Below are positions 16,848-32,000 of a DNA stretch of 32,000 nucleotides, piece after piece. Location of the stretch: NCBI RefSeq assembly GCF_000012905.2, contig NC_007493.2, positions 1,380,001 through 1,412,000 on the forward strand, given 5' to 3'. Position 1 is the stretch's first letter. The number at the start of each line of letters is the position of its first letter. The translations under genes were made by a program, and so were the position numbers. The notes below the pieces were generated by a model. That model made no database searches and was not told the origin of the DNA. It worked only from the letters and a program-made list of their open reading frames with translations. Origin of the DNA: Cereibacter sphaeroides 2.4.1 (GTDB lineage Bacteria; Pseudomonadota; Alphaproteobacteria; Rhodobacterales; Rhodobacteraceae).

Positions 16848-16895
16848 TCCCTCTCCTGTTACATTCGTCCGTTCCGGCCCGGCCTCGGCCTCGCC

Positions 16896-18143: not shown

Positions 18144-18458
18144 TTCAGACGTTTCCCCTCCTCTGGGGCGCGGGGGAGAGACTGGTCGAGACGCCTCGTC
18201 CCGCCGCCGGCCGCGGACGCACATGTGGCATCCTTCGGGATCAACCGGAAGGGGAGAGAGAGGTCCCGCCCCCCGTGTCGGCGCCTTCGCAGCGCTTCTC
18301 CGCTCAGGGCACCGGGGGGCAGGGGCGTTCCGCCCCGGGAGGCTTCCCGATGGGGTCAGCCTGCAGCGGCGCTCGGCCTGTCCCGCGCGTGGCGGGCAGC
18401 GCCATCCGCGGTCGCCGGCCGATCGGGCGAGCCCTCCCGGCCCGAACTGCCGGGGACT

Positions 18459-18854
18459 TCAGAAGCCTGCAATCTCGCGCCGGGCCACCATGGCGATGAA
18501 GGCCGACCGGGTCATCCCCCGCGCCGAGGCTGTGGCGTCGATGGCGCGCAAGAGGCCCCGGTCCATCGAGATGTTGACCCGTTCGAGCTTTCCGTCTGCA
18601 GGGACATAGGCGAAGGTCATCAGCGAAGCGCCCTCGGACAGCGCCTTCCGAACCTCCTCGCGAGACCGGATCGCGTCTATGGGGGAGGGCTCGACGGCCG
18701 GCCCGTCCTCGAACCAGAGGTCGAGCGCCTCCACCGCCTTCGCCGAGATGTCGGACCAGTCGTCGGCAGCGGCGAAACATCCCGGCATGTCCGGGAATGT
18801 GAGGCCATAGGACGAGTCCGGCTCTTTGTGAACGACGGCCGTGATCAGCTGCAT
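18459..18854 (-). CDS. hicB: HicB-family antitoxin (HicB fold + C-terminal RHH/CopG-like domain)
   Basis: 131 aa from the ATG at 18854; an alternative ATG lies at 18866. N-terminus MQLITAVVHKEPDSSYGLTFPDMPGCFAAADDWSDISAKAVEALDLW is typical HicB. C-terminus RVNISMDRGLLRAIDATASARGMTRSAFI is RHH-like. Confidence 0.75.
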   Translation of the reverse strand: MQLITAVVHKEPDSSYGLTFPDMPGCFAAADDWSDISAKAVEALDLWFEDGPAVEPSPIDAIRSREEVRKALSEGASLMTFAYVPADGKLERVNISMDRGLLRAIDATASARGMTRSAFIAMVARREIAGF

Positions 18855-19182
18855 GGGGCGCTCCATCGGAGGGACAGGCTAAGGATGGGATTCGGTCGGG
18901 CTCAGAAGAGGCCGGATCGTCGGTATATGCGTCGGGCGGTGCCCGGCGGAAGGTCCGTCTTCGGCTGCGTCAGGATCCTCGTCCTGTCTCCCTGCGGACG
19001 GGGCGGCCCATGGAGCGCGGGCGCGGATGGTTGCCGAAGCACTCGCGGCCGCGGTCCGGAGATTGCAGGGGGTCCGGCGCCCACGTCATGCCGAACGCGC
19101 CGATGAAACAAACCCGGCCCCGGCCTCATTCGCCGAGGGCGGCAAGCACCTGTAGCAAAAAGGAATTTCGGGGGGTAGGAGA

Positions 19183-19198
19183 TGGAGCGGGTGAAGGG
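19183..19198 (-). other. tRNA 3'-end fragment (tRNA-Gly-like CCCTTCACCCGCTCCA), probable att core at the island edge
   Basis: The minus strand reads CCCTT-CACCCGC-T-CCA. That is half a T stem, the 3' acceptor strand complementary to GCGGGTG, discriminator U and CCA. This matches my memory of alphaproteobacterial tRNA-Gly. The rest of a cloverleaf is absent, because TTGGC cannot pair with AAGGG. It lies 210 nt from the integrase start. Confidence 0.35.
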
Positions 19199-19409
19199 CG
19201 CCAAATTGGCGTGGCCGTCCGTATCAACCCGTAACAGCCGGCCTTGTTTTACTGGCAATTCATCGTCCGCGCAGTCTCATTCTGTTGCAATCTGCAGCAT
19301 CCAGTCGCATTCCTTTTGGTAAGTAGGCTGGTAAGTCCGCGGCGACCCACGGGCAGCGGCCGGCCGCCGGGAACGGCTCGGCCGGCCTCGGGATTAGGGA
19401 GGAGGGCGG

Positions 19410-20729
19410 ATGCCGAAGAAGGCGAGGGAATGGGGCGCGCTCGACGTCAAGCGGGCGGCGCATCCGGGCGACGGTGCAAACGTCTGGCATGCGGTCGGCG
19501 GCGTCGCCGGTCTTCTCCTGCAGATCACCCCGACCGGGGCGAAGAGCTGGCTTCTCCGCACGACTGTGGCAGGGACGCGGCGGGCCATGGGTCTCGGCTC
19601 CTATCCCGAGGTTGGGCTCGCCGAGGCGCGGGAGCGCGCCCGGGAGGCGAAGCGAAAGATCGCGGCGGGGGTCGATCCGATCGAGGAACGCAAGGCAACG
19701 CGCGCCGCCCTGGCGGCGGCGCAGCGGCGCTCCCTGACCTTCGCCGATGCCGCGGACAAGTGGATCAAGGCGAAACTGTCAGACCGGCCGGAGAAGTCTC
19801 AGAAGGCGGTGCGGGCCACCTTGACAGCCTATTCTTTTCCCGAGATCGGGGCGCTGACCGTGCAGGAGTTGACCCCGCAGGACGTGGTGCGCGCCTTGAA
19901 CACGATCTGGACGGCGAAGCCGGACACCGCCACGAAGATGAGGGGATATCTCGAGGCGATCCTCTCGTGGGCCACGGTCTCGGGCTATCGGACGGGCGAC
20001 AATCCAGCCCGATGGGCGGGCAACCTGAAGGAGTTGCTGCCGGCTCCGTCTGTCGTCGCCAAGGGCCGGGCAGGCAACTTCCCGGCCGTGCCGGTCGCGC
20101 GGCTGGCGGACTGGTGGGAGGAGCTGGGGCAGCGCGAGGGCATGGGCGCCACGGCCCTGCGCTTCGCCGCCCTGACGGCCGCCCGCTCGGGCGAGGTGCG
20201 CGGGGCTCTCTGGTCCGAGGTGGATCTCGATGCCGCCCTGTGGGTCGTGCCGGGCGCGCGCATGAAGATGGGGCGCGAGCATCGCGTCCCGCTCTCGGGC
20301 CCGGCCGTGGCACTCCTCCGGGGCCTGCCCCGCCTTGCCGGGACCGGCGACCTGATCTTCCCCGGGCCCCGCGGCGGGATTCTGTCCGACATGAGCGTGA
20401 GCGCCGTCATGCGCCGGATGCAGGAGGACGCCGAGACCGAGGCCAAGATGGCCGGTCGGCCGGTCAGCGCCGCGGGTTGGCGGGACACGCGGACCGGCCG
20501 CCCAGCCGTGCCCCATGGCCTGCGCAGTTCATTCCGCGATTGGGCTGCCGAGGTCGGCTATGACCGGGACATGGCAGAGATAGCCCTCGCGCACCTGGTC
20601 GGGTCCGAGGTCGAGCGTGCCTATCGGCGCTCCGACATGCTCGAGCGCCGGCGGGCCATGATGGAGCGGTGGGCCGACGTCCTCGCAGGCCGGTCTGGCG
20701 CGTCCGTGGTGGAGTTCCGGCGGGCTTGA
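19410..20729 (+). CDS. int: tyrosine-type site-specific integrase, P4/DUF4102-type
   Basis: 439 aa. GGGAGGAGGG upstream. The N-terminal arm-binding domain pattern (GLLLQITPTGAKSWLLRTTVAGTRRAMGLGSYPEVGLAEARERA) is present. Catalytic region has R (LTAARSGEV), HGLRSSFRDW and LAHLVGSEVERAYRRSD. Confidence 0.9.
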   Translation: MPKKAREWGALDVKRAAHPGDGANVWHAVGGVAGLLLQITPTGAKSWLLRTTVAGTRRAMGLGSYPEVGLAEARERAREAKRKIAAGVDPIEERKATRAALAAAQRRSLTFADAADKWIKAKLSDRPEKSQKAVRATLTAYSFPEIGALTVQELTPQDVVRALNTIWTAKPDTATKMRGYLEAILSWATVSGYRTGDNPARWAGNLKELLPAPSVVAKGRAGNFPAVPVARLADWWEELGQREGMGATALRFAALTAARSGEVRGALWSEVDLDAALWVVPGARMKMGREHRVPLSGPAVALLRGLPRLAGTGDLIFPGPRGGILSDMSVSAVMRRMQEDAETEAKMAGRPVSAAGWRDTRTGRPAVPHGLRSSFRDWAAEVGYDRDMAEIALAHLVGSEVERAYRRSDMLERRRAMMERWADVLAGRSGASVVEFRRA

Positions 20730-20930
20730 TCGACGCACCTGAGGGGCCGCGCCCATAGGCGTGCCCCCGGCCCTCGGTGGAACAGGAGGGCGCCGGTCCG
20801 CATGGCACGATAGGGGCGCGGCATACGAGAGGCCGCGGTGAACCGGTGGGCGGCTTATTGCGGGGGAGGCGTCACAGGGCGACGATTGTAGCAACGCGTA
20901 TCAATTAGTTGCGCGCGTGTTTCGCGGCTG

Positions 20931-20966
20931 GTTTCTGCTTGTTTAAGCAGAAACGCTCCCTACAAA
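20931..20966 (+). promoter_or_regulatory. 24-bp palindrome overlapping a candidate promoter for the island operon
   Basis: GTTTCTGCTT-gttt-AAGCAGAAAC (20931-20954) has perfect 10-bp arms. TTGTTT (20939-20944), 16-nt spacer, TACAAA (20961-20966). This is the locally AT-richest stretch of the island. A second small inverted repeat, CTCCCT-N9-AGGGAG (20956-20976), follows. Confidence 0.4.
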
Positions 20967-20995
20967 ATGCAGGGAGTTGCATGAAAGGACACGGC

Positions 20996-21454
20996 ATGTC
21001 TCTCGCGAAAGCAATTCCCGGCGTGCTGGCGGGCGCAACCGGGAAAAACAGCGGCTCGGAAAAACCACAAGTTCAGAATGCCACCGCTGGAGAAAATCCG
21101 CAACCCATTTCCTTCCCCGATGGGGACCGTTTCCGGTGGATCCTTAGCGTTCGCGATGCGCTCTGCGCGATGCCGGACGGGACGGCCTCCGATCTGACGA
21201 TCGCGGTGAAGATGGCGGAGTGGGCGGATGGTGACGGAATTCTCGTCGTGAAGCTGGACGATTTGGGCGCCGCGGTGGGGATGCGATCCGATTACTCGAG
21301 ACACGGGGTGTGGCGTATCGGCCGCGCCGGCTTTGTCCGGTCGTGGGCCCGGGGACAAGGGCGCGCGGCGGGGCGGATCCTCACCTTCCCGAACGATCCG
21401 CGCGACGTTGAGAAGTTGATTGCTCGGCACCAGATCGGCGGGGGTGCGGCATGA
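20996..21454 (+). CDS. hypothetical winged-HTH-like protein (first gene of the island operon)
   Basis: 152 aa from the ATG at 20996; an alternative ATG lies at 20981. The track start at 20909 is a TTG inside the regulatory region. The segment TASDLTIAVKMAEW...VKLDDLGAAVGMRSDYSRHGVWRIGRAGFV is laid out like the N-terminal domain of the next gene. Confidence 0.5.
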   Translation: MSLAKAIPGVLAGATGKNSGSEKPQVQNATAGENPQPISFPDGDRFRWILSVRDALCAMPDGTASDLTIAVKMAEWADGDGILVVKLDDLGAAVGMRSDYSRHGVWRIGRAGFVRSWARGQGRAAGRILTFPNDPRDVEKLIARHQIGGGAA

Positions 21455-22626
21455 GTGTCGATCGCAAGCCGGAGCGTTCCCCGTTCGACAAAGAGCGCGA
21501 CGCCTTCCTTCTGGAAGTTTCAGCGAACCGGAAGCTCAGCGCTGCCGCCAAGTCGATCGCCATCCAGATCGCGGTCAAACACGCAAACCGGATGCAGTTC
21601 AACAATGGCGCGTGGGACCTCGCTTGGCCGTCGTTCGAGACGCTGGCCGAGGCGACAGGATACCAGCGAAACGCCGTGATCGTGGGCGTCAACCAGTTGG
21701 CGACTGAAGGACACCTCGATGTGCGGCGACAAAAGGGCGGGTCTGGCAGGTCGAACCGCTATCGGTGGATCATCAAGGGGACCGTCACCATCGACGCGCA
21801 GGACGCAGTTGATGACGGGGAAAACAGTATCGTGGACGATACCGTTTCTGACGAAAACAGTATCGTGGAGGATACTCGAACAGTATCGTCCACGATACCA
21901 GAACCGCTAGAGGAACCGCTGGGCGGCGCGGGCGCTCACGCGCCTGCGCCTGAACCGCCGAAGACGGCACCTAGCCCGGATACCGTAGAGTCCTTGAATA
22001 ATGTTCAAGACGCGAGCGCGGGCGCGCGTGACCGCGCCCGCTCGGACGACGTTCAAGGTCGAGATCATCCCGCGTCGGATCCAGATATGGATGGACGCGT
22101 GTTCGACCTCGTGCCTGAGTACGCGCCGGCCGACGGCATCGCGCAGCTGCCAGTCCTTCGGCGGGGACAGCACATCTCGCTCGCCGAACGCGACGCGCTG
22201 TCGGCGGGATGGCACGGCCTCGGTCCCTCGGTCTCTCCGCCGGATGCGGTCGAAGAGGACGGGCCCCTCCCTACGGCGGTAGCCGCGGCAGCGTTCGCCC
22301 GTTTGCACCGGGACCTTGGCGACGCAGAAGCATTCGCGGCCGACGTCCTGGACGGCTTTGCGGGAGGCGATGGCGACGCCGCAGCCCGTGCCGCCCGCAT
22401 CGCCGCGAAGGTCCTCCGTCAAGCCGTGTCTCAAGGCACTGGGCCGGAGGTGCTCGAGGCGCACCTTGAAATTGCCCAAGCCCTCCTGCGCGACGGCAGC
22501 GGCAGCGACCGCCTAGCACGGTCGGCCGTCCGGGCATTCGATCGAGCCGCGCGGGCAGCCTCGGCGGCCATCCGGGCAGCACATAAGCTGAGACCGCAGC
22601 CCGATGAGGAGGAAGTAACATGCTGA
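21451..22626 (+). CDS. replication-initiator-like protein (N-terminal wHTH, Ala/Asp-rich C-terminal half)
   Basis: 391 aa. ATGA overlap with the upstream gene. N-terminal LSAAAKSIAIQIAVKHAN...WPSFETLAEATGYQRNAVIVGVNQLATEGHLDVRRQKGGSGRSNRYRW is typical of phage/plasmid wHTH initiator domains. An iteron cluster is embedded in the linker. Confidence 0.5.
   Translation: MSVDRKPERSPFDKERDAFLLEVSANRKLSAAAKSIAIQIAVKHANRMQFNNGAWDLAWPSFETLAEATGYQRNAVIVGVNQLATEGHLDVRRQKGGSGRSNRYRWIIKGTVTIDAQDAVDDGENSIVDDTVSDENSIVEDTRTVSSTIPEPLEEPLGGAGAHAPAPEPPKTAPSPDTVESLNNVQDASAGARDRARSDDVQGRDHPASDPDMDGRVFDLVPEYAPADGIAQLPVLRRGQHISLAERDALSAGWHGLGPSVSPPDAVEEDGPLPTAVAAAAFARLHRDLGDAEAFAADVLDGFAGGDGDAAARAARIAAKVLRQAVSQGTGPEVLEAHLEIAQALLRDGSGSDRLARSAVRAFDRAARAASAAIRAAHKLRPQPDEEEVTC
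21821..21898. repeat. iteron-like repeat cluster (3 copies of ~21 nt) inside the Rep-like gene, candidate origin
   Basis: AAAACAGTATCGTGGACGATAC (21821-21842), AAAACAGTATCGTGGAGGATAC (21854-21875), GAACAGTATCGTCCACGATAC (21878-21898). The 16-nt core of copy 3 is the exact reverse complement of the core of copy 1. Confidence 0.6.
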
Positions 22627-23117
22627 TCGATCTCGAGGCGGCGCGGGCCGCGCGTGCAGCAGACCACAAGCCTGTCGAGCCGCGCCAACCGGAGGAACCT
22701 CGCGGCCCGTCCAAGCGAGGGACGGTTACACCGCAACTGGCTACCTCTTTCGACGCCTTCATTCGTTGGCATCCGCATCTCGATCCGCGCCTCATCGCGG
22801 CCGAGCTCCGGGCGGCCATGAAGGTTGACGCAACCACAGCAGGGGCTATGGCCCGGGATCGGCGGGCAGCGGTGCGAGCGGCCCTAGCCGCCCTCGGCCT
22901 TGCTGAGCGGCGCGTCGAAGCTCTGAGCTCTGAGCACTGGCTCTGCACGCGGCTCCATGCTCGGGCCATGCGCGAGCTTGAGCGCCAGGAGGCGGAGGTG
23001 CGCGAGACCGCCTATCGCCGCGCCCTTCAGCAAGCACGGTATCAGTTTGAGCGGGAGCTGGATGCACGGCTCGCCGCGATCTTCGCGGCAACTGAGATCG
23101 GCGGGGGTGAGCGATGA
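22620..23117 (+). CDS. hypothetical protein
   Basis: 165 aa. The ATG overlaps the upstream stop (ATGCTGA). Helical, Arg/Glu/Ala-rich C-terminus. No family recognised. Confidence 0.5.
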   Translation: MLIDLEAARAARAADHKPVEPRQPEEPRGPSKRGTVTPQLATSFDAFIRWHPHLDPRLIAAELRAAMKVDATTAGAMARDRRAAVRAALAALGLAERRVEALSSEHWLCTRLHARAMRELERQEAEVRETAYRRALQQARYQFERELDARLAAIFAATEIGGGER

Positions 23118-23467
23118 ACGCGGAAGTCGAGCTCATGTGGGGGGTGGCAGAACGGCTTCTCCCCGCGTTCGATCCCGAGGCGTTCGCAGAGATGTTGACC
23201 CCGATCCTTGATCGCAGCGATTTCGATACGGGGGTGGCTGTCTGGCGCGCTTGGCGGGCGCGGGCGGACCGGCAACTCATCCGGCAGAACGTGCCGGAGG
23301 CAACCCGGCGCATGATCCTGGGCTATCTCCGTGCGGGTGTGCATCTCCACCTCTACGCGATCCGCGGGAGCGTAACGTGCGGACCTCGTCCGGAGCAGGT
23401 CGCCACATCGGCCGAGGTGCTTTCCTTCCGCCCGCGTGCGGCCGTGGCAGGGGATGACCGTGGCTGA
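23114..23467 (+). CDS. hypothetical protein
   Basis: 117 aa. ATGA overlap with the upstream gene. Balanced composition including W/F/Y. No family recognised. Confidence 0.5.
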   Translation: MNAEVELMWGVAERLLPAFDPEAFAEMLTPILDRSDFDTGVAVWRAWRARADRQLIRQNVPEATRRMILGYLRAGVHLHLYAIRGSVTCGPRPEQVATSAEVLSFRPRAAVAGDDRG

Positions 23468-24047
23468 CCTCCCCGCCCCCGCCCTCGACCCCGAAGGCCT
23501 CTGGCGCGGGCCGTGGCCGGATGCCAGCGACCCGGCGCCCGACCTGCGCCGCTTGGGCGCCCGCGAACGGGCGCACCTGCTCGCCTGCGTCGCGGAGTGG
23601 ACCGGCGCCTGCCCGGTGCCTGCGATCCAGATGGGCGGAGAGCTCCTGCTTCGGGCGCTGGCCGAGGCCCTCGCGGGCGAGCCGATCGGGCGCGCCCTCG
23701 GGATCGAGCCACCGGCCGGTTTGACCCTTCGCCGAGCGGCGCTTCTGCGCGAGCGGGACGAGCTGCTCCATCGCGCCCGCGCCGCCCGGCCGGAGTGGCG
23801 CACCGCCTCGGCGCGGCGGGCGGCAACGCTGATCCATGCGGCCCTCGATCGCTACCGCGCGAACGTCTGGCCGCGCGAGCGGGGCCGGGAGGCAGCGCCG
23901 GCCGCAGAACCGGCCGCGAGTTTCTGGCGGATCTGTCGTCTCGAGGCCGGGGGCGGGCCCAAGGCGGTGGGCAGCGAGCGGATCGCGCAGATCTTCGAGC
24001 TGGCGGACGGTCCAGCGGAGCGACCGGAACAGCTCGATCTCCTCTGA
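23454..24047 (+). CDS. hypothetical protein
   Basis: 197 aa from the ATG at 23454, which overlaps the upstream gene end. An alternative GTG lies at 23436. No family recognised. Confidence 0.45.
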   Translation: MTVADLPAPALDPEGLWRGPWPDASDPAPDLRRLGARERAHLLACVAEWTGACPVPAIQMGGELLLRALAEALAGEPIGRALGIEPPAGLTLRRAALLRERDELLHRARAARPEWRTASARRAATLIHAALDRYRANVWPRERGREAAPAAEPAASFWRICRLEAGGGPKAVGSERIAQIFELADGPAERPEQLDLL

Positions 24048-24159
24048 CGAGGCACCGGGGCGGCCACCCGCCCAGGTGCCGTTCCGGCAAATCTGCCGCC
24101 GCTTCGGAGTTGGGATCACCCGCGCGAAATATGGCTCAGGAACAGAACCCGGAGCCGTC

Positions 24160-24627
24160 ATGCCCCCGAAGTCCCCGCCCCTGATCTTCGACCCCGCGCG
24201 CTTGGACGCGCTGGCGCGGATCGCCGATCAGAAGACCGCCGCCGTCCGTTCGCAGACCGACCGCCGGCACGATCTGCGCGAGAAGCTCAGCGACGTCGAT
24301 CTGCGCCGCCGCCTCCATGCCGACAAGATGACCGAGGCCCAACCTGCGCGCGACGCCCGCGCCTCCTATGCCGGCTTCGACGGCGAGGGCGCACGGCTCG
24401 ACCGCGAGGCCGCCGACCTTCGCCGGCAGATGGACGATCTCGACGCCGAGATCAGCGCCACCAGCCGCGAGGCTGGCGACGCGCGCGCCACCTACCGGCG
24501 TGCCCTCGAACTCGCCTGCGCCGAGGGCTTGCCGCTCTCACTCGCGCACATCGAGGCGGCGCGGGTCGCGAAATTCGATACCATGGCGAGCGAGCTCGCC
24601 GCCTTCTCGGCGGAGGTGGGCCAATGA
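24160..24627 (+). CDS. hypothetical coiled-coil protein
   Basis: 155 aa from the only ATG in the frame, with GGAG 5 nt upstream. Heptad-like charged helices (DLRRQMDDLDAEISATSREAGDARATYRRALE). Confidence 0.45.
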   Translation: MPPKSPPLIFDPARLDALARIADQKTAAVRSQTDRRHDLREKLSDVDLRRRLHADKMTEAQPARDARASYAGFDGEGARLDREAADLRRQMDDLDAEISATSREAGDARATYRRALELACAEGLPLSLAHIEAARVAKFDTMASELAAFSAEVGQ

Positions 24628-25208
24628 TCGGGAACCTCCTCAGCGCCCTGCGCGGGCAGCGTGAGGCCGCCGTGGGCGCCCTCGATGCCCTGGAAAGCGT
24701 GCGTGCCCAGATCGATGATGCGAGGACCGAGATCCGGCGCATCGCGTCCGCCCCGCAACCGCTCGAAGACGCGATGGCCGCGTTCGACCGGTGGGCGGAT
24801 CAGCAGGTCGTGGATGCCATCGACGGGCTGCCGACCGGCCGGCTCCTCGATCCGATCGAAGCCCGCCGTGGGCTCACGCGTGAGGCCGTGCGGGTGGATG
24901 GGATGACCCTCCTCGCGCCCGAGATCGACGCCGTGCGCGGCGTATTGCTCGCTTCCCCGACCGTCCGCGCGGAGATCCGCGCCGTGGTCGAAGGCCAACT
25001 TCGCGACCGCCTACAGGGCAAGGAAGCGATGAACCCGGACACCCGTGCGAAGAAGCTGACCCGCGCCCAAGCCGATCTGCTCGCGCTCGAGCTGGCCGAG
25101 GAAGCCGCCATTCGCGCGCTGGAAGCCGCCGGGCTGCCCGTGATGCGTCGGCCCGATGCTGACCCGCGGGTGCTGCTCGCGAGCGACACCAGCCTGCCCG
25201 AGGCCTGA
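24624..25208 (+). CDS. hypothetical protein
   Basis: 194 aa. ATGA overlap with the upstream gene. Helical N-terminus. No family recognised. Confidence 0.5.
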   Translation: MIGNLLSALRGQREAAVGALDALESVRAQIDDARTEIRRIASAPQPLEDAMAAFDRWADQQVVDAIDGLPTGRLLDPIEARRGLTREAVRVDGMTLLAPEIDAVRGVLLASPTVRAEIRAVVEGQLRDRLQGKEAMNPDTRAKKLTRAQADLLALELAEEAAIRALEAAGLPVMRRPDADPRVLLASDTSLPEA

Positions 25209-25559
25209 CGATGAACACCTGCTCGGTCCTCCTTGGTGTTCTCGGGCCGGGCATGGGCGACGGGGCAGGGCTCCCTCCTTCGTCCGCAATCCGGCGCGTT
25301 CGCCGCGATGCCCCGTCGTCCCGTCGCCCGTCCCCGGGTGCCCCTGCACGCGGGGCGGGCGGCAAACCTTCCCACGCCGGCCCGCCAGCAATCCCGCAGA
25401 CCAGCGGCCTGCCGGGAGCGCTCAGGACAGCCGCCCCCACCCCCCCGGATAGGGACCGTGTTTTTGCCCGCCGGGAGCGGCGGTTCGACGGCCCGGCTTC
25501 CGCCCGATTTTCGGAAGCGCAAATCGCAATTTTTCTTTGAAAGGTGGAACGTGGTTCCG

Positions 25560-25751
25560 ATGAATGACCGCATGGAAGAACAAGATCGCGGCCCGAGGTC
25601 GATCCGCGCTGCGCTACAGGATCGCCAAGCGGCGGCCCAGCCGGATCTTGCCGCAGTTTTTGCCGCGCGACCGGCCGTTGCCGCGCTCTGCGCCCGCGCT
25701 GCCGCGGGGCTGATGGCTGGCACCCGCACTCCCAGCCCGAACGAGGAATGA
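25560..25751 (+). CDS. small hypothetical protein preceding the scaffold-like gene
   Basis: 63 aa (MNDRMEEQDRGPRSIRAALQDRQ...). AAAGGTGG upstream. Its stop overlaps the next ATG (ATGA at 25748-25751). Only the 3' part of the 25233..25751 track ORF looks coding. Confidence 0.35.
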   Translation: MNDRMEEQDRGPRSIRAALQDRQAAAQPDLAAVFAARPAVAALCARAAAGLMAGTRTPSPNEE

Positions 25752-26536
25752 CCATGACCAACAACGCCACCCACGAGCGCCGCCGTCTCGCCGCCATCAC
25801 GCGTGTTGACGCGAAAGGCATCACTGGACAGGCGCGGTATGCGGCCATCCGGCAGGCCGAGGAGGAGATCGAGCGCGAGGAGCTGACTGCAGCCGCGGCC
25901 CGCCAGAAAGAACAGTCGGCCGCAGAACAGGCCAAGGCTGAGCGCCAGCGCGTCGCATCGTGCATTGAGGCGGGCCGGGCTACCGGCCGCGCCCGCCAGC
26001 TCGCCCGCATCGCCCTCAGCAGCCCTCTTGACGCCGCAGGAGCCAAGGCCTTGGTGGCGTCCCTCCCACCGGACGCCGCGGCTCAGGCAGAGGCGCTGCG
26101 GATCCCGACCGCCGCCGCCACCTTCGGCACTGCGGAGGCTCAGGCCGAGCGCACGCGCATGGCTCAGATCCTCGGGGCCGAGGTGGCGGCGGATCGTTTC
26201 GCCGCCGCAGCGGCCTTCGCTCTCGAGACGCCTCTTGGGGTGGCGGATGCGCTGGCGGCGCTTGCGCTGGTTCCTGCCGCCGCAGCCGCGTCGCGCATCC
26301 CGACCATCGCCGAGCGTGCCGCCGAAATGGCCGAGTTTGGCGGGTCGGATGCGGCGTTCACGAGCCGGATCGACGGCAAGCCGGACGTCGATGCCATGTG
26401 GAAGAAAGCCGTCCACGAGGCAAACATTTCCATCGGCGCGGTCGACCCGACGCCGAGGCCCGCGGCCGGGCCGGGCGCACCGTCGCCGACGGGTGCCGAG
26501 CATCTGGCGCGGCAGCACTCGCGCCACAACTTCTGA
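25748..26536 (+). CDS. scaffolding-like protein (Nu3 / protease C-terminal-repeat type) without a protease domain
   Basis: 262 aa. Two ~44-aa internal repeats: AERQRVASCIEAGRATGRARQLARIALSSPLDAAGAKALVASLP (res 64-107) and AERTRMAQILGAEVAADRFAAAAAFALETPLGVADALAALALVP (res 133-176). This is the ER.RI..IL...EA.GRE.LA..LA pattern I recall from the C-terminal scaffold regions of lambda-like head proteases. It lies directly upstream of a decoration-protein gene. Confidence 0.45.
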   Translation: MTMTNNATHERRRLAAITRVDAKGITGQARYAAIRQAEEEIEREELTAAAARQKEQSAAEQAKAERQRVASCIEAGRATGRARQLARIALSSPLDAAGAKALVASLPPDAAAQAEALRIPTAAATFGTAEAQAERTRMAQILGAEVAADRFAAAAAFALETPLGVADALAALALVPAAAAASRIPTIAERAAEMAEFGGSDAAFTSRIDGKPDVDAMWKKAVHEANISIGAVDPTPRPAAGPGAPSPTGAEHLARQHSRHNF

Positions 26537-26550
26537 AGGAGAAGGGACAC

Positions 26551-27204
26551 ATGACCGTTTTCACCCAAGGCAAGCGCGCCTGCGAAGGCCTGATGAGCGA
26601 GGCGCCCGGGCAGCGCAGCCGTGAGGGCATCGTGATCTCCGCAGGCGCCGGGATTATTGCGCCCATGACCGTGCTCGGGAAGAAACTCCACAGCTCGCTC
26701 GCGGCGACCGCCAGCGCATCGCCCGCTGGCAAAGGGACCCTCACGCTGGCTGCACCCCCTGTCGGCCCTGGCGCCAAGGCGGGCGTCTACAAGGTCGTGA
26801 TCGTGGAGCCCGCGACGAACGCCGGGGCCTTCGTGGTCGAGGATCCGAGCGGCGTGATCGTCGGGAACGGCACGGTGGGCGTCGCATTCACCGGAGAGAT
26901 CAAGTTCACCCTGGCTGACGGCGCGACGGATTGGGCCGCTGGCGATTTCGTGACTGTCACCGTGCCCGCCGGGTCCGGCGAATACATCCCGTCGGACGTC
27001 ACCGCGACCGACGGCAGCCAGATCGCCGCGGCCGTGAACCTTTACGGCTGCGACGCCACCAGCGCGGCGCAGGCGGTCTCGGCCATCGTCCGGGATGCGG
27101 AGGTCAACGGCAACTTCCTCACCTACCACGCGAGCCGTGACCAGGCATCCGAGAAGGCTGCGGCCGTCGCTGATCTGGCCGCGGCCGGCATCATCGTTCG
27201 GTGA
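26551..27204 (+). CDS. head decoration protein, lambda gpD-like, long form
   Basis: 217 aa. AAGGAGAAGGG upstream. N-terminus MTVFTQGKRACEGLMSEAPGQRSREGIVISAG and C-terminus TDGSQIAAAVNLYGCDATS...AIVRDAEVNGNFLTY...ADLAAAGIIVR match the alphaproteobacterial gpD-like pattern. About 100 extra residues sit in the middle. Confidence 0.55.
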   Translation: MTVFTQGKRACEGLMSEAPGQRSREGIVISAGAGIIAPMTVLGKKLHSSLAATASASPAGKGTLTLAAPPVGPGAKAGVYKVVIVEPATNAGAFVVEDPSGVIVGNGTVGVAFTGEIKFTLADGATDWAAGDFVTVTVPAGSGEYIPSDVTATDGSQIAAAVNLYGCDATSAAQAVSAIVRDAEVNGNFLTYHASRDQASEKAAAVADLAAAGIIVR

Positions 27205-27722
27205 CGGCGATGCCCCGCGTCCGAAAGACGCGCGCAGATGCGCCCGCATTGCCGGCGGATGCGGTGCGGTTGGCCGAGGCGGCCGAGGTTGTTGGCCTGA
27301 GCGCGGAACGGCTTCGCCAACTGTCCCGCGAGGGTCGCTTCGAGATCGAGCGCGGTCATGCCTCGTTAACCGCCGTGATCGGGGGCGTGATCGCGGCGCT
27401 TCGGGAGCGAGCGCAGAAGGACACGAAAACGGCGAGCCTGAGCCGGGCGCAGGACGCGCGGGCGGCGCTTCTGGCCGCCCGCACCCAACGACGGCGCGAG
27501 CAACTGGTGGCCCGTGCGGATGCCAATCAGGCCCTCGATGAGCTTGGCCGTCGGGCTATCGCCGCGCTGCACCGTGCGCCGGTTCAGGCGGTGGCGGAGC
27601 CGCTGCGCGCCGCCGTGCGCGCGGAGGCGGCGGACGCGGAGCGCAAGATCGGTAAGGCCGTCCGCGAGGCGAAGGCCGCATTGGCGAGCGGCGACTTCTC
27701 GAGGATTGCGCCCGATGAATAA
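27201..27722 (+). CDS. Nu1-like small terminase / DNA-packaging HTH protein, paralogue 1
   Basis: 173 aa. GTG at 27201 overlaps the upstream stop; an alternative ATG lies at 27210. N-terminal HTH (VRLAEAAEVVGLSAERLRQLSREGRFEIERG) is followed by a long helical Arg/Ala region (ARAALLAARTQRRREQLVARADANQALDELG), as in Nu1-type TerS. Confidence 0.45.
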   Translation: MTAMPRVRKTRADAPALPADAVRLAEAAEVVGLSAERLRQLSREGRFEIERGHASLTAVIGGVIAALRERAQKDTKTASLSRAQDARAALLAARTQRRREQLVARADANQALDELGRRAIAALHRAPVQAVAEPLRAAVRAEAADAERKIGKAVREAKAALASGDFSRIAPDE

Positions 27723-28116
27723 CCTTGCCGCAGCATTGCTCGAGCGCCGCTTCCCTCTCGCCGATGCAGCGGCGGCGCTCTCCGTCCCGGCCGCTGTGCT
27801 GCAGCTTGGGGCTGGTGACGACGGGGCCATTCCCTTCCGGCGCGCCGTGCGCCTCGCGCTGGCGCACCATCGGACACTGGCCTATGCCGTGCGCGGTCCG
27901 GCGCCTGCGCCTAGCGATCAGCGGGCCTACCAGCGTCACCTCCCGGCGGCCAGGCAGGCCGTGGGCACGGCGATCTCGGGTGCCTTGGCCACCGCGGCCG
28001 AGCGCGTGGCGGGTCTGCCGGCCGCCCATCCGTGGGATAAGCAGGCGCGAGACCGCGTCGCCACCGCGCTCCGCACCGCGTCGATGCGTCGTTACGGGAG
28101 GCGCGCCAATGGCTGA
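27715..28116 (+). CDS. hypothetical protein between the two TerS-like genes
   Basis: 133 aa. Its ATG overlaps the upstream stop (ATGAATAA). Its stop overlaps the next ATG. Possible HTH (LADAAAALSVPAAVLQL). Confidence 0.4.
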   Translation: MNNLAAALLERRFPLADAAAALSVPAAVLQLGAGDDGAIPFRRAVRLALAHHRTLAYAVRGPAPAPSDQRAYQRHLPAARQAVGTAISGALATAAERVAGLPAAHPWDKQARDRVATALRTASMRRYGRRANG

Positions 28117-28561
28117 CGCTCAGATCACCGTCGCCGCCTTCGGCCGCCTCGTGGGCGCCACGCGGGCAGAGTTGGAAGCGCTGATCTCGGCCGGCGCCTT
28201 GCCAAAGCCCACGGGCCGGGATCGGCGCCTCCCGCTGCGAGAGGCCGCCGCGCGCTACCTCGCGCACCTCCGCGCGGAACTTGCGACGGCCCGGGCCGGC
28301 GCCGCTGCCAGCCGGGCGCAGGAAGCGCGGGCCGGTGCTGCCACTCTCGCGCTCGCGGTGGAGAGGCGAGAGCTCTTGGACGCCCACGAGGTCGAGGTCG
28401 CGTTAGCTTCCGCCTGCGGTGCGATCAACACAGCGCTATTGGTCATTCCGGCCCGCGTCACCCGCGACAGTCGCCAGCTCCGCCTTCTGGAAGATGCTAT
28501 CTACCAGCTCCGGGCTGAGCTTGCCGCCGATCTCCAATCCGAGGACGAAAAGCAGGCATGA
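28109..28561 (+). CDS. Nu1-like small terminase / DNA-packaging HTH protein, paralogue 2
   Basis: 150 aa. N-terminal HTH (ITVAAFGRLVGATRAELEALISAGALPKP) followed by a helical region (SRAQEARAGAATLALAVERRELLDAHEVEVAL). Same layout as 27201-27722. Confidence 0.45.
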   Translation: MADAQITVAAFGRLVGATRAELEALISAGALPKPTGRDRRLPLREAAARYLAHLRAELATARAGAAASRAQEARAGAATLALAVERRELLDAHEVEVALASACGAINTALLVIPARVTRDSRQLRLLEDAIYQLRAELAADLQSEDEKQA

Positions 28562-28791
28562 CCATGACGATTTACGAAACCGTAACCGTGGCGGGCGATC
28601 GGATCACCCTGCCGCTGCTCATCTGGCGCCGGTTCAAGCGCCCGGTTCCCGGCGTGCTCGAGGCGACCCTCGAGGCGAACCCTGGCCTTGCGGACCTCGG
28701 GCCGGTGCTTCCGGTGGGAACGAAGATCCGCATCCCGATCCCGGCCCCGGAGGCCGAGAAGCGGCCGACGGAACGCATTTCGCTCTGGTGA
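28558..28791 (+). CDS. P2 gpX-like tail protein X (LysM-like)
   Basis: 77 aa. ATGA overlap with the upstream gene. Pattern YETVTVAGDRITLPLLIWRRF......LEATLEANPGLADLGPVLPVGTKIRIP fits the Phage_tail_X family. Confidence 0.55.
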   Translation: MTMTIYETVTVAGDRITLPLLIWRRFKRPVPGVLEATLEANPGLADLGPVLPVGTKIRIPIPAPEAEKRPTERISLW

Positions 28792-28842
28792 TGATGAGAC
28801 CGGGCAGGGGCGGTCCTATGCCGTTCCTGCCCGCATCGGAAA

Positions 28843-28865
28843 AGGCGGAGGCGAGCTGTCCGCCT
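28843..28865. terminator. hairpin between the convergent gpX-like and Cys-rich genes
   Basis: AGGCGGA-N9-TCCGCCT (7-bp stem), preceded by GGGCAGG-N17-CCTGCCC. There is no T tract. Confidence 0.3.
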
Positions 28866-28873
28866 CTGAACGA

Positions 28874-29134
28874 TCAGCAGGCGCAGCCCGGACCTTTCCG
28901 ACAGGACTTCGAGACCGCGATGCAGCTGTCGCCGCATGGTTTCCCCTTCCGGCACGTCTTGCAACAGGCGGCGAGAAGGACCCGCGGGCCCGATCGCATC
29001 CTCTGCACATGCTGCAGAAGGCTCTCCGAAACGGTGCCGTCCGCACGGCTCATTCCCAAGGTCCGCACAGGATCTGCCGCCGCAACGGATGAGATCATGA
29101 TCGCAAGGCAGGCGAGACGAAGGATAGATCCCAT
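28874..29134 (-). CDS. small secreted Cys-rich protein
   Basis: 86 aa from the ATG at 29134, with AGGAG 6 nt upstream. The track ORF extends to 29299. Signal peptide MGSILRLACLAIMISSVAAA. The C-terminus CCKTCRKGKPCGDSCIAVSKSCRKGPGCAC has 9 Cys in 30 residues. Confidence 0.5.
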   Translation of the reverse strand: MGSILRLACLAIMISSVAAADPVRTLGMSRADGTVSESLLQHVQRMRSGPRVLLAACCKTCRKGKPCGDSCIAVSKSCRKGPGCAC

Positions 29135-30006
29135 TGGAGCTCCTATGGTGGCGCGCGCCAATTGCGCGTGAACACCGTGGAGGAGCCTGCGCGCTGATCC
29201 GATGTGGCGCCACGCCTCCCGTTCGGAATAGCCGAGCCATGTCCGTAGGTATGCGATCAGAATTCGAAAGGTCGGCGCCGGTCGTGCTGCCGGCGGCACT
29301 CATGCGCTCTCACAGCGGCTCAAGGGAGGGGCGGCCGCAGACCTTCGGAGGAGCCTGCGGCCTATCCGTCGCAAGATTATGAGGCCGCTTCGGATGGCGG
29401 CCTGCTACTGCGCCGGCGCATGATCCGCACTGCGGCACAATGAGGCGCAGCCGACCGGGCGAGGCACCGGACGTCGCTGCTCCGGCCATCATTCCCGCCA
29501 GCCCGGAGCGTGGTGCGGTCGAGCTTTGTCAGCGTTGGTGTGACAGGTCGATCGAAGGCTGTCGCAGGCGCGGCGGAAAGGGGTGATTTGCCCGTCGGCC
29601 GTTTCCGATCTTCGACCTCCGAGGAGATGGGAAATCGGAAGTTGCCGGGCGGGCGGATCATGCCGGGGTCGCGGTGCGCGCTCACGTTTCGCTCCCGCGC
29701 CTCGTGGATCTCGTCGCGGCGGATCCCGAGGTCGGCGGCAGTGGCGGGTTTCGTGGTGGGGGCGGGCGCAACGCCCGGCTTGGAAGAGACTTCGTGATCT
29801 GCAACGTCTTTTTTCCGGGCCTCGCTGCCTGTGCGCCGCCACCTCGCCCCACTCCCGCGCAGCGTCCCCAACTGCCGGCCGCATCCTCAATCGGGCCTCC
29901 ATCCTCACGAAGGCGGCTTGCGCCCTGTAGACCACACCAGGCGCATCACGGGCCGCAGGTTTCCCGGCTGGCACGCAACGGCTCATTGGCGGCTCTGGCC
30001 GCCATC

Positions 30007-30036
30007 TTGAAATTCAGCGCAGTTTCCGCATATACA
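30007..30036 (+). promoter_or_regulatory. candidate promoter giving a near-leaderless brnT mRNA
   Basis: TTGAAA (30007-30012), 18-nt spacer, TATACA (30031-30036). The brnT ATG lies at 30044 and no Shine-Dalgarno is present in the 7 intervening nt. Confidence 0.4.
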
Positions 30037-30043
30037 AAAACTC

Positions 30044-30292
30044 ATGTTGGTGATTGTATGGGATGAGCCAAAGCGGCGCAGCAACCTGGCGAAGCATGGG
30101 CTGGACTTCGCGGACCTAGACGAGGAGTTCTTCCTGTCGTCGGTTGTCGTGCCAGCAAGCGCAGGCCGTCACATGGCGATCGGGCGCCTTGAGGATGGAA
30201 CCATTGCCGTGGTCTTCGCGGTTCTGGGGGCCGAGGGCGTTTCGATCATCTCTATGCGCCCTGCGAGCCGAAAGGAGAGGAGCCTTCTATGA
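30044..30292 (+). CDS. brnT: BrnT (DUF497) type II ribonuclease toxin
   Basis: 82 aa. WDEPKRRSNLAKHGLDFADL ... GVSIISMRPASRKERSLL matches the BrnT pattern (WD..K...N..KHG..F ... IRIISAR.A...E). Confidence 0.8.
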   Translation: MLVIVWDEPKRRSNLAKHGLDFADLDEEFFLSSVVVPASAGRHMAIGRLEDGTIAVVFAVLGAEGVSIISMRPASRKERSLL

Positions 30293-30594
30293 CGAAGAAG
30301 CGTCAACTCGACACGGAAGAGACCCGCATCCAGCGGATGATCGCGAGCGACCCGGATGCTCCCGAAGCGACCGACGCGCAGCTTGCGCAGGCCCGACCCT
30401 TCACTGAGGCGTTTCCTGTGCTGGCCGAGGCCATGCGGCGCAGCGCAGGCGGTCGCCCGAAGCTGGACGCGCCGAAAATGTCGGTTTCACTTCGCCTCGA
30501 TCAGGACGTGGTGGCGCACTTCAAGGCAGGCGGCCCCGGTTGGCAATCTCGGATGAACCGCGCCCTGCGGGAGGCGGTCGGCCTCTCCGGCTAG
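30289..30594 (+). CDS. brnA: BrnA antitoxin
   Basis: 101 aa. ATGA overlap with brnT. GGRPKLDAPKMSVSLRLDQDVVAHFKAGGPGWQSRMNRALREAV is the BrnA family signature. Confidence 0.8.
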   Translation: MTKKRQLDTEETRIQRMIASDPDAPEATDAQLAQARPFTEAFPVLAEAMRRSAGGRPKLDAPKMSVSLRLDQDVVAHFKAGGPGWQSRMNRALREAVGLSG

Positions 30595-30811
30595 CGGCGC
30601 GGCGAGGAAAAGGGGGGGGGGCGCGCGGCCAGAGAACCCCATTTCCGGGCCACCTGCGGGCGGTGACGTCTATGGCTGCCGGACACAGTGCTGCCGCGCG
30701 CTTGTGCCCGTCCAGCGCCCGCTACTTGGCTCCTGCGGCATTAAGAGGTTTTCTTGCGGTCGGGCCGGCGTCATGGCATGTCGGAAACATTCCCGCACAT
30801 AGGAGCCCCGC

Positions 30812-31395
30812 ATGAATGCCCGGACGCCCCTCGCCGCCCTTCTCGGTGCCGTCGCTGCAGACCTTGCAATTGATCGCAGCGCATGGGGCAGGGCCGCGCC
30901 AGCCGCGGCCCCGGCTCCGACCGAGCCGCGGGAGACATGGACGCCCGGGTTGGTCATGCAGACGATGATCGACGCCCAGCTGTGGGCACGGCGGACAGGT
31001 CGCCCGGTGGGGCCGGCGGGCTACACGCGGTCTCGCTCGGATTACCAAGCAAGCGATCTGGACTTCGAGCGCGAGGGCTGGGGCCTGCCCGAGGTGGCCG
31101 ATCCTGAGACGACATTCCCCCGATGCGCGTCCAGGCCACGGCCGCCCTGGTCAGCCTCTATGAGGCCGCGCTCGAATGGCCTGCGGACTATCTTTGCCCG
31201 GAGCACATCGGCTCCGCCCGGATGCTCGGCCTGTTCACCGTGTGCAAGGCCATAGGCCTGCCCGTTGCGCGCGAGCTGAAGGCGCGTGGCGTAGCGCGTC
31301 ACCACGCCTACCGGCTCCGGGATCGCGGCCTCTCCCTCACCGCCCAGGGCCTCGAGCGGGACGGGGTGCCGGTGCCCCAGCCCGAGCGGCTGTAG
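30812..31395 (+). pseudogene. island HTH-type protein split by a frameshift at a C5 run
   Basis: ORF 30812..31255 has plausible sequence to ~31120, then R/S/P-rich nonsense. ORF 31123..31395 is in the -1 frame, which is open from 31108. The junction is at CCCCC 31117-31121. The joined product is ~194 aa with a C-terminal HTH-like region (VARHHAYRLRDRGLSLTAQGL). AGGAG lies 7 nt upstream of the ATG at 30812. Confidence 0.5.
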
Positions 31396-31490
31396 AACCG
31401 CCTACGGGGCATCGCGCCGCGCAGTCTTCACCATTGAACGCCTCGCCACGATCGCGACCCACATAGCCAGCAGTTCGGCTTAACCGGGCG

Positions 31491-32000
31491 CTAAATGTGA
31501 GGGTTCTTCGGAACCCGAGGTTGCTGCAAGATATTCTCGACCACGCTCCAAGGCCAAACGATGCCAAGCTGAAGATCTTCCTTCACGTTAATCCTCCCAG
31601 AGTAAACGCCAACGATCTGTGCTGCACCGCGCTCAGCCACCACCGTATCGCCATCGCTGTTGATGTAAATTCCGCTATTAGCGACTTGGATAACCAAAGA
31701 ACCGGACATTCCTGGTCGCGAGGCGGTGTCTACATAGAAACACGGAGGACGGTGCACTTCTGCCAAAAGCGGCTCACTTGCAACGCTTGCGCGCTTCCAT
31801 ATGGGAAGTGGCTGAAACTTCAGCTTGAAGGGGAAGCCAATTATAAAAACTTCCGATCCCGTCCCGATATAGAAGCCTCGCATGACAGTGCCGTCACCAA
31901 GATCGTCATTAAGGCATGTGATCTGCAACCCATCCGGCAGCTGGCATGGAATTGCCACCACATCCACTTTCGCGTCCTCGTCTTTGTGCTCCAACCATTG
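31491..32000 (-). CDS. trypsin-like (S1/chymotrypsin-fold) serine protease, C-terminal part; N-terminus beyond the window
   Basis: The frame is open to the window edge (QWLEHKDED...). An Asp-type motif (VDVVAI) and the Ser motif SRPGMSGSLV are present; the catalytic His is expected upstream. GC content is markedly lower than the rest of the window. Confidence 0.55.
   Translation of the reverse strand, partial: QWLEHKDEDAKVDVVAIPCQLPDGLQITCLNDDLGDGTVMRGFYIGTGSEVFIIGFPFKLKFQPLPIWKRASVASEPLLAEVHRPPCFYVDTASRPGMSGSLVIQVANSGIYINSDGDTVVAERGAAQIVGVYSGRINVKEDLQLGIVWPWSVVENILQQPRVPKNPHI

Follow-up and report, generated by a model that had tools for sequence, protein, structure and literature searches.

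To our knowledge, the phage satellites that have been characterised experimentally come nearly all from Enterobacterales, Vibrio and Firmicutes, with a few from Actinobacteria. The Staphylococcus aureus pathogenicity islands (SaPIs), for example, redirect packaging with a small terminase (TerS) of their own. They obtain small capsids through either CpmB, an alternative internal scaffold, or Ccm, a homologue of the major capsid protein (MCP); with Sid and Psu of P4, these are the precedents for capsid remodelling (bioRxiv 10.1101/2022.09.08.507074). The phage-inducible chromosomal island (PICI) EcCICFT073 carries homologues of an MCP and a head-decoration protein plus a Nu1-like helix-turn-helix (HTH) protein (PMC6092414), and has in Rpp a protein by which a terminase of lambda type is redirected (PMC6739421). 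Capsid-forming PICIs (cf-PICIs) are defined by an MCP, protease, portal, head-tail connectors, HNH, TerS and large terminase (TerL) (bioRxiv 10.1101/2022.09.08.507074). Virion-encapsidated integrative mobile elements (VEIMEs) have an integrase, replication genes, AlpA and TerS homologues, and their hosts include Alphaproteobacteria; they have no capsid structural genes, and their concatemers are packaged in full-size heads (PMC9618062). The scope of SatelliteFinder is P4-like elements, PICIs, cf-PICIs and PLEs (elements resembling phage-inducible chromosomal islands), and Alphaproteobacteria are not mentioned in its main text. Here we describe an island of the alphaproteobacterium Cereibacter sphaeroides 2.4.1, most of which lies at the right end of a 32,000-nucleotide stretch of the chromosome (NC_007493.2, positions 1,380,001 to 1,412,000; below, the window). 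Most likely it is a helper-dependent satellite of a kind that has so far not been described from Alphaproteobacteria, and we found no description of it or of its relatives in the literature.

On the evidence of gene content and comparison between islands, we think it probable that this locus belongs to a PICI-like family of helper-dependent phage satellites of ~14 kb in Cereibacter and related Alphaproteobacteria. An earlier inspection of the letters and open reading frames (ORFs) of the window (the sequence-only reading) had proposed a satellite. This proposal is supported in silico, and is strengthened by a family of nearly same-sized islands at five tRNA genes that have neither portal nor TerL. 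We favour a satellite over a decaying prophage because the gene order is not derivable from a phage order by deletion, because the islands have integrated independently at those tRNA genes, because their size stays near 14 kb despite the swapping of gene cassettes, and because selection acts on the coding sequences as well as on a non-coding element.

The island is a discrete tRNA-integrated element with an intact integrase, an iteron origin of its own and one translationally coupled operon (Table 1). Its proposed start at position 19183 coincides with the attL repeat, TGGAGCGGGTGAAGGG, which occurs once in the window (none expected by chance). Because this sequence recurs as the 3' end of a tRNA-Gly(CCC) gene, the island can be delimited at 14,083 bp from att to att, its right end lying ~1.3 kb past the window edge. 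The right flank was read from chromosome 1 of another C. sphaeroides record (CP015287.1), which is 100% identical to the window over an overlap of 11,712 nt. The right 11.7 kb of the window is also identical in CP012960.1 and CP047037.1, and 10 kb past the window edge was examined. The tRNA gene lies outside the window, within which ARAGORN found no tRNA and an Rfam scan gave no match. Capsid, portal or TerL genes beyond the right edge would point to a prophage. None is there: the island's protease is followed by two small ORFs, the tRNA-Gly gene and then the housekeeping genes for RACo, a pterin-binding protein, Ppx/GppA and FtsJ.

Syntenic islands occur at tRNA-Gly, where the sequence-only reading had suggested looking, and at other tRNA genes besides. 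Searches with the scaffold and TerS proteins (see below) found at least seven related islands, in isolates of C. sphaeroides and C. azotoformans, in a genome of 65% GC and in metagenomes. The window island combines a stand-alone scaffold with a long gpD and gpX. At the same tRNA-Gly(CCC), in C. azotoformans KA25 and a C. sphaeroides strain, there is an island of 13,848 bp (L016, L097 and L098) with a full S49 protease only, gpX and a TrkH-like gene. The C. azotoformans island at tRNA-Ala (L012, L013 and L075; 14,003 bp) has S49, MCP and a short gpD. The remaining members have the scaffold only: a C. sphaeroides island at tRNA-Ser (L010 and L102; 15,054 bp) that also carries a tail-fibre homologue (phrog_2712, 6e-27), a tail assembly chaperone (TAC), a tape-measure protein (TMP) and AlpA; L101 of C. 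azotoformans, with TAC and TMP; L011, L015 and L109 from metagenomes; and L106 of the 65% GC genome, at tRNA-Arg (14,011 bp), with AlpA, ParE and SocA_Panacea. Integration is thus at tRNA-Gly(CCC) twice, tRNA-Ala, tRNA-Ser and tRNA-Arg, with exact att repeats of 15-51 nt, and the five bounded islands span 13.8-15.1 kb while differing in gene content.

What stays constant in this family is a core. Every member has, in this order, a small protein, a scaffold or S49 protein, a TerS of 170 aa (TerS-170), a 133-aa protein and a TerS of 150 aa (TerS-150). The slot before the first TerS varies, and holds the scaffold only, S49, S49 with MCP and gpD, or scaffold with gpD. No portal, TerL or HNH gene was found in any member. 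The ratio of non-synonymous to synonymous substitution (dN/dS, Nei-Gojobori) is 0.16-0.61 for all genes tested, and the island genes are under purifying selection.

Pfam and PHROGs searches of the called genes of the window island found no MCP, portal, TerL, tail tube, tail sheath or lysis gene. A six-frame tblastn of the whole island with phage TerL, portal, MCP, S49, gpW-like and baseplate proteins matched the scaffold and TerS genes only. The lack of capsid, portal, large terminase, tail and lysis genes, on which the sequence-only reading had been built, is upheld by these searches. The canonical phage module, TerS-TerL-portal-W-S49-D-MCP, is not in the att-to-att content.

The protease-less scaffold-like protein of that reading has also found support. 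Residues 45-259 of the window protein align with residues 253-458 of the 462-aa S49 protease of a sister island (36% identity, E 7e-16), that is, with the region after the protease domain. The same region aligns with the C-termini of S49 protease-scaffold proteins in real phages; the protease domain is absent. There is a partial match to the 'head maturation protease' PHROG (9e-7), covering residues 129-200 of 262 only. An exhaustive phmmer search of 1.84 billion representative sequences gave 53 clusters related to the scaffold, of which 50 are proteins of 121-275 aa that mostly align near end to end and three are longer proteins matching at their C-terminus. Judging by these matches, the protease-less scaffold is a gene family of its own and not a truncation unique to the window copy, since 50 of the 53 clusters stand alone. 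Its dN/dS is 0.29-0.51. An extension of ~30 aa at the C-terminus (VDPTPRP...PTGAEHLA; window 26450-26536) is found in the scaffold and S49 proteins of the islands and has no counterpart in phage S49 proteins. This island-specific extension may be the part that alters capsid geometry. The small protein encoded ahead of the scaffold was considered as a gpW homologue; this was ruled out, as it is unrelated to the gpW-like protein of phages.

Lambda offers a parallel in Nu3, the C-terminal part of gpC made as a protein in its own right. The island scaffold likewise corresponds to the C-terminal part of a head protease protein. It differs in being encoded by a separate gene in an element without the protease, and in having a new N-terminus and the C-terminal extension that phage proteins lack.

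The neighbouring gpD-like decoration protein is well founded too: the HDPD match covers the full length of the model (1-116/116), and the closest phage gpD is 81% identical. The window copy is a long variant, with a beta-rich insert of ~95 aa after residue ~45; phages have long forms as well as short ones (123-126 aa). In an AlphaFold2 (AF2) model (pLDDT 90.4) the core has weak Foldseek matches (E 0.07-0.45) to the capsid decoration chains of Sf14, Bas63 and YSD1 and to lambda pD. The matches are weak because of the inserted domain, which itself resembles FlgL/Wzc beta domains. This gene has a dN/dS of 0.16.

Downstream are two genes that had been called Nu1-like small-terminase paralogues. 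That both encode TerS stands: against an alignment of phage TerS proteins, hhalign gives 99.2% (E 3e-19) for TerS-170 and 99.1% (E 4e-19) for TerS-150. In metagenomic phages, the gene lying immediately upstream of a GpA-type TerL also matches both of them (tblastn 5e-12 and 1e-9). Their kinship to each other is seen at the profile level only (95.5%, E 1.5e-8), BLASTP detecting no similarity between the two copies. As for 'Nu1-like', neither protein matches Pfam Phage_Nu1, and the term is best read as an analogy: in related phages an HTH-type TerS lies upstream of a GpA-type TerL. A MerR-like winged HTH (wHTH) has been reported for lambda Nu1 and for Rpp (PMC6739421), and the AF2 model of TerS-170 (pLDDT 81.8) has an N-terminal wHTH followed by long helices. 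The 133-aa protein between these genes was considered as a third TerS and rejected, since profile comparison found it unrelated to either. The last gene of the string does encode a gpX-like protein, as proposed. It is an accessory, present in some family members only (also in L016 and L097), and among phage records it comes closest to a protein of Microcystis phage Mae-JY30 (58%), a phage that encodes gpD too.

Two non-coding segments accompany these genes. The first, just ahead of the late operon, contains the motif CCCCCC-N4-RGGGACCGT, which is present a single time in each of 18 island loci, likewise in L106, and in none of 85 phage loci. In other islands the element lies at 9685 (L010), 7455 (L011), 6183 (L013), 8298 (L016), 6601 (L101) and 9447 (L106). 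The motif is kept in L011 and L106 although the proteins there are only 30-48% identical, and the element as a whole is conserved better than the flanking proteins. We regard it as a candidate late promoter or operator, a candidate packaging recognition site, or both. The second recurs in L013 (10745-10860) and, in part, in L016 (11609-11657), each time downstream of the packaging genes. Rfam has no family that matches it, and its folding is no better than that of shuffled sequence (z = -1.7). A search for sigma-70-like promoters gave none, and terminator-like sites do not exceed the frequency expected by chance.

At the other end, the integrase next to attL has the P4-type domain architecture that had been assigned to it, and is 80% identical at the amino-acid level to the integrase of the C. 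azotoformans and C. sphaeroides islands at the same tRNA. The genes that follow form one co-directional string, on which GC3 periodicity and NCBI gene calls concur. All nine start/stop overlaps listed in the sequence-only reading are in place: ATGA or GTGA at 21451, 23114, 24624, 25748, 27201 and 28558, and further overlaps at 22620, 27715 and 28109. Of its two wHTH initiator-like proteins, the 391-aa HTH_36 protein holds, and its orthologues in L010 and L101 also match RP-C. The 157-aa protein does not; it has no family match and no similarity to the initiator. The iteron cluster inside one gene was recovered as three copies of AACAGTATCGTSSASGATAC within the initiator gene, against none expected by chance, and resembles the arrangement of origin iterons in lambda O. 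The initiator gene of L010 (4141-4404) has 72-nt tandem repeats, unlike the 20-mer iterons of the window island, and the differing arrays suggest that the origins may be island-specific.

Table 1. Features of the island. Positions are those of the window; sizes are in amino acids unless stated.
Feature	Position	Strand	Size	Evidence and remarks
attL, direct repeat TGGAGCGGGTGAAGGG	19183..19198	.	16 nt	Identical to 3' end of tRNA-Gly(CCC)
P4-type tyrosine integrase	19410..20729	+	439	Arm-DNA-bind_3 5e-20, Phage_int_M 7e-24, Phage_integrase 8e-14
157-aa protein	20981..21454	+	157	Varies among islands
Replication initiator	21451..22626	+	391	HTH_36; lambda-O-like and other replication-initiator PHROGs; origin inside gene
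Iterons, three copies of AACAGTATCGTSSASGATAC	21823..21898 (copies at 21823, 21856, 21879)	+		Imperfect palindromes, local GC dip
Five family-conserved genes	22620..25208	+	165/117/197/155/194	Conserved in related islands; dN/dS 0.32-0.56
Conserved non-coding element ahead of late operon	25438..25560	+		Six-island alignment
Small conserved protein	25560..25751	+	~63 (annotated 97 from 25458)	Always precedes scaffold/S49 gene
Stand-alone protease-less scaffold-like protein	25748..26536	+	262	Homologous to C-terminal post-protease region of S49 protease-scaffolds
gpD-type head-decoration protein, long variant	26551..27204	+	217	Pfam HDPD 2.3e-30, phrog_49 1e-16
Small-terminase paralogue 1 (TerS-170)	27210..27722	+	170	phrog_57 0.0087
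133-aa conserved protein between TerS genes	27715..28116	+	133	In all islands; no PDB or family match
Small-terminase paralogue 2 (TerS-150)	28109..28561	+	150	phrog_57 3.2e-11, near full length
P2 gpX-type tail/baseplate protein	28558..28791	+	77	Phage_tail_X 2.6e-12, phrog_46 1e-13
Second conserved non-coding element, with hairpins	29329..29447	+		Downstream of packaging genes
BrnT/BrnA type II toxin-antitoxin pair	30044..30594	+		2.9e-16, 1.4e-26
Family-conserved gene, phrog_6836	30812..31395	+	192/193	Split here into ORFs of 147 and 90 aa
Trypsin-like protease, candidate defence cargo	31491..32000 (to equivalent of 32303)	-	270	phrog_7688 1.8e-17
attR, intact tRNA-Gly(CCC)	33266-33339 (window-equivalent; 12978-13051 in L001)	-		ARAGORN

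What kind of phage might such an island exploit? The closest relatives of its gpD (81%, 61% and 55% identical) lie in contigs with the order TerS, GpA TerL, Phage_portal_2, gpW-like protein, S49 protease, HDPD and Phage_cap_E, after which come P2-type baseplate genes (gpV, gpW/gp25, gpJ and gpI). The canonical order holds in 79 of 80 IMG/VR loci with a related gpD, and the sole exception is an island of the present family. The helper is likely to combine a lambda-like head with a P2-like tail, given this head-gene order, the baseplate genes near the gpD relatives and the gpX match in the gpD-encoding phage Mae-JY30. The closest relatives of the S49 and MCP proteins of the sister islands (67%) are also in genuine phage contigs which, with the 81% match of gpD, would fit gene exchange with helpers.

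The comparison with described satellites is closest for the PICIs. In the sense of Fillol-Salom 2018, the island has the size of a PICI, the att repeat in a tRNA gene and the integrase adjoining attL. Its replication module is an initiator of HTH_36/RP-C type with internal iterons, not the usual primase-type pri-rep. Its packaging and capsid genes are the two TerS, the scaffold and gpD, while genes for MCP, portal, TerL, tail tube and lysis are all absent. The gene order of EcCICFT073 is int, alpA, primase, PerC, a 68-aa protein, the MCP homologue, the head-decoration homologue, a 137-aa protein, the 144-aa Nu1-like HTH protein and a 93-aa protein. PICIs of this type resemble our island in size (11-14 kb), in the integrase at one end and in the succession of regulation and replication genes by a co-directional late operon, and the parallel in architecture with EcCICFT073 is striking, above all for the sister island L012, which even has the same unusual order of MCP then decoration protein. 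The late proteins of EcCICFT073 were considered as homologues of the Cereibacter ones and set aside, there being no detectable sequence similarity. Our islands differ in having an iteron initiator instead of a primase, two bona fide TerS paralogues in place of Rpp, a scaffold that stands alone and derives from an S49 protease-scaffold, gpX, TAC with TMP or a tail fibre in some members, and alphaproteobacterial hosts.

Likenesses to the other groups are partial. The combination of a redirecting TerS and an alternative scaffold follows the logic of the SaPIs, as does a satellite size of about a third of the helper genome. The sequences are unrelated, however, and here the scaffold is truly homologous to a helper-type scaffold domain and is joined by a second TerS, a decoration protein and tail genes. 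P4 shares the integrase architecture, the tRNA integration, the pairing of scaffold with decoration protein and an expected helper with a P2-like tail component (gpX). It differs in that the scaffold here is of the internal (Nu3-like) type and in that P4 has no TerS; searches of Pfam, PHROGs and NCBIfam found no homologue of Sid, Psu, Delta, Epsilon or the alpha primase-helicase in the window island. With the S49 protease, MCP and decoration protein of L012 and L013, i.e. part of a head of its own, that island approaches the cf-PICIs. That said, no member has a portal, connectors, HNH or TerL, and the window island, with TerS only, lacks MCP and protease as well. The PLEs of Vibrio have a serine recombinase, RepA_N, TcaP/NixI and the helper ICP1. 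Our island has a tyrosine integrase and an HTH_36 initiator, and gave no match to PLE genes in the family libraries, no search having been aimed at TcaP or NixI. The sequence-only reading held that satellites are barely described in Alphaproteobacteria. This needs qualifying, as some VEIMEs are alphaproteobacterial (PMC9618062), but those lack capsid genes, and the present family differs from them in its head-morphogenesis genes and its fixed unit size of ~14 kb.

By analogy with CpmB, Ccm and TerS_SP of the SaPIs, Sid and Psu of P4 and Rpp of EcCICFT073, we infer the following mechanism. A helper with a lambda-like head (TerS, GpA-type TerL, Phage_portal_2, S49 protease-scaffold, gpD and a gpE-type MCP) and probably a P2-like contractile tail would infect the cell or be induced. 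The island would excise and replicate from its own origin with the replication proteins of the host, and the late operon behind the element at 25438-25560 would be expressed. The stand-alone scaffold, with its capsid-binding C-terminal domain, no protease and an island-specific tail, would co-assemble with the helper MCP into a smaller shell fit for ~14 kb, a role functionally like that of SaPI CpmB or lambda Nu3. The island gpD would stabilise this small shell, as Psu does for P4. The two TerS paralogues would bring the helper TerL to a satellite-specific site, and one of them may poison the helper TerS in the manner of Rpp. gpX may adapt or complete helper tails, and the distal cargo, BrnTA and a PDC-S45-like protease, would benefit the host.

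Some of our results weigh against a satellite. Helper dependence, excision, replication and packaging are read from gene content, and nine conserved genes have no known function. The phage collection contains no such Cereibacter phage; its gpD matches, from Pseudomonas phages, show only 45% identity, and neither TerS paralogue had a match by tblastn among 50,697 phage records. The conserved motif is absent from the phage loci examined and so did not qualify as a cos site shared with phages; as a cos or pac site it is a candidate only. No AlpA or HTH regulator was recognised in the window island; AlpA/HTH_17 is present in L010, L011 and L106. While HMM, profile and structure checks uphold the calls of decoration protein, TerS, scaffold and gpX alike, Foldseek found no solved TerS structure for the TerS-170 model, only MerR-type HTH proteins at E > 0.04. 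Two further points concern the condition of the window copy. A 2-nt insertion near 31106-31109 splits the phrog_6836 gene, which is intact in L010, L012, L098 and L101, so the copy may be partly defective. The 1.25 kb between gpX and brnT hold no convincing gene, only the hairpin-rich element shared with L013 and L016.

These last two points would suit an immobile remnant of a prophage with a lambda-like head, whose capsid, portal, TerL, tail and lysis genes have been deleted. So would the fact that every recognisable late gene has phage homologues, and the differing subsets of phage genes in the sister islands (S49, MCP, TMP, tail fibre) can be read as stages of decay. Yet the order scaffold-D-TerS-x-TerS-X cannot be reached by simple deletion from the canonical order that 79 of the 80 loci share. 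Remnants decaying independently would not arrive at one architecture of ~14 kb at five tRNA sites, with exact att repeats and intact integrases. Purifying selection, translational coupling, a conserved family of stand-alone scaffolds and a maintained non-coding element also speak against decay. We therefore judge a decayed prophage to be clearly unlikely. An island domesticated for interference or defence, neither packaged nor transferred by phage, we also think unlikely. Its decoy scaffold, decoration and TerS proteins would sabotage phages with lambda-like heads as dominant-negative subunits, and its cargo would add abortive infection. The cargo genes suit this account, both here (BrnTA and the PDC-S45-like protease) and in the sisters (ParE, HigB, SocA_Panacea and a VWA/PP2C/kinase trio), as does the failure to find a cos site shared with any phage. 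For pure defence, however, an origin and initiator of its own, an integrase with perfect att at several tRNAs and a size range of 13.8-15.1 kb would be superfluous; they speak for mobility with a size constraint. Moreover, interference and hijacking coincide in known systems (PMC6739421), which makes this account largely a subset of the satellite model.

It is highly improbable that the island is some other mobile element, moved by conjugation or by a gene transfer agent (GTA) and carrying its phage-like genes as incidental cargo. Its size is within the general range of genomic islands, and GTAs do occur in Rhodobacterales, the order of Cereibacter. But no relaxase, oriT, type IV secretion system (T4SS) or coupling-protein domain was found in any island gene by family searches, and the conserved core is the TerS-scaffold module, not the cargo. 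The Rhodobacter capsulatus GTA (RcGTA), for its part, packages random fragments of ~4 kb in an HK97-type head without gpD.

Beyond these main points, several observations on the islands may be useful to others. In L012 (7520-10381, the same in L013 and L075) a full S49 protease, a Phage_cap_E MCP and a short gpD follow one another in the order protease-MCP-D, with no portal or TerL; this island stands between PICI and cf-PICI. L010 (7416-9122 and 11994-15120) and L101 (9421-12157) carry a Phage_TAC_7 chaperone and a PhageMin_Tail tape-measure protein of 747-870 aa, with a tail fibre in L010; for a satellite without a tail tube this is unusual cargo. IMG/VR lists two family islands as viral genomes, the uncultivated viral genomes (UViGs) 640427138_000002 (L075/L103) and 2854681122_000007 (L102). 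A scan of IMG/VR with TerS-170 as a single protein found nothing, nor did scans of metagenome contigs with alignments of orf194 and TerS-150. The scan of genome contigs used a single narrow peptide pattern and gave one locus.

The five genes between the initiator and the late operon have no match in Pfam, PHROGs, NCBIfam, PADLOC or the PDB. The proteins of 155 and 194 aa look like coiled coils, and when orf133, orf194 and orf155 were compared as profiles with PDB sequences, only insignificant coiled-coil matches came up. Residues 51-126 of orf194 (24774-25001) weakly resemble residues 221-294 of a phage portal (30% identity, E 0.002-0.006 in small databases, seen twice), which is probably chance.

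At the distal end, the toxin-antitoxin pair and protease of the sequence-only reading were both found. The protease is PDC-S45-like (PADLOC, 1.3e-12), its Trypsin_2 match (1.9e-4) falling under the Pfam cut-off. In the 2.4.1-type lineage, the frameshifted phrog_6836 gene beside it has probably become a pseudogene. In more distant members the distal cargo (L106 14557-15120; L109 6519-10107) includes a SocA_Panacea protein, ParE and HigB toxins and the VWA/PP2C/kinase trio. Such cargo is in keeping with a variable hotspot for defence or addiction at the end distal to att.

On the left, the island is flanked by genes for zwf, pgi, a rhodanese, a sulphur transporter, a pyruvyl transferase and a HicB-like antitoxin; the last (18459-18866, minus strand, E 2e-24) belongs to the chromosomal flank just outside attL. 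An ORF of 1425 aa on the plus strand (14829-19106) was discarded as an artefact of high GC, with an Arg/Pro-rich nonsense translation. The real genes beneath it are in other frames and on the other strand, e.g. 15840-16847 and 16896-18224 on the minus strand.

The principle of the satellite is already established. What is new here is the helper-derived stand-alone scaffold, the gpD, the tandem TerS genes and the exchangeable cassettes of virion genes; a helper-homologous scaffold and tandem TerS genes are each without counterpart in the described mechanisms of PICIs, P4 or PLEs. More tentatively, the islands could represent an unrecognised lineage of alphaproteobacterial satellites, with a packaging-limited genome of ~14 kb, a fixed core (small protein, scaffold domain, TerS, 133-aa protein and second TerS) and swapped virion cassettes derived from helpers. 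These cassettes would comprise the stand-alone scaffold or full S49, with or without MCP, a short or long gpD, gpX, TAC with TMP and a tail fibre. Such a lineage, a possibility to which we lean less than halfway, would form an evolutionary continuum that bridges classical and capsid-forming PICIs, and would remodel head size, tail length and host range. Its size-determination device would be a new one, in which the scaffold domain of the helper itself is copied without the protease and bears a satellite-specific C-terminal extension.

The family is of interest in several ways. Its host is a genetically tractable alphaproteobacterial model, in 2.4.1-type strains of C. sphaeroides, and the natural variants round one constant packaging core are a ready comparative experiment on capsid size, packaging specificity and perhaps tail properties. 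Recognition of the family helps annotation, as public virus catalogues hold such satellites unrecognised. Finally, the toxin-antitoxin and candidate defence cargo of these islands bears on the biology of defence hotspots.

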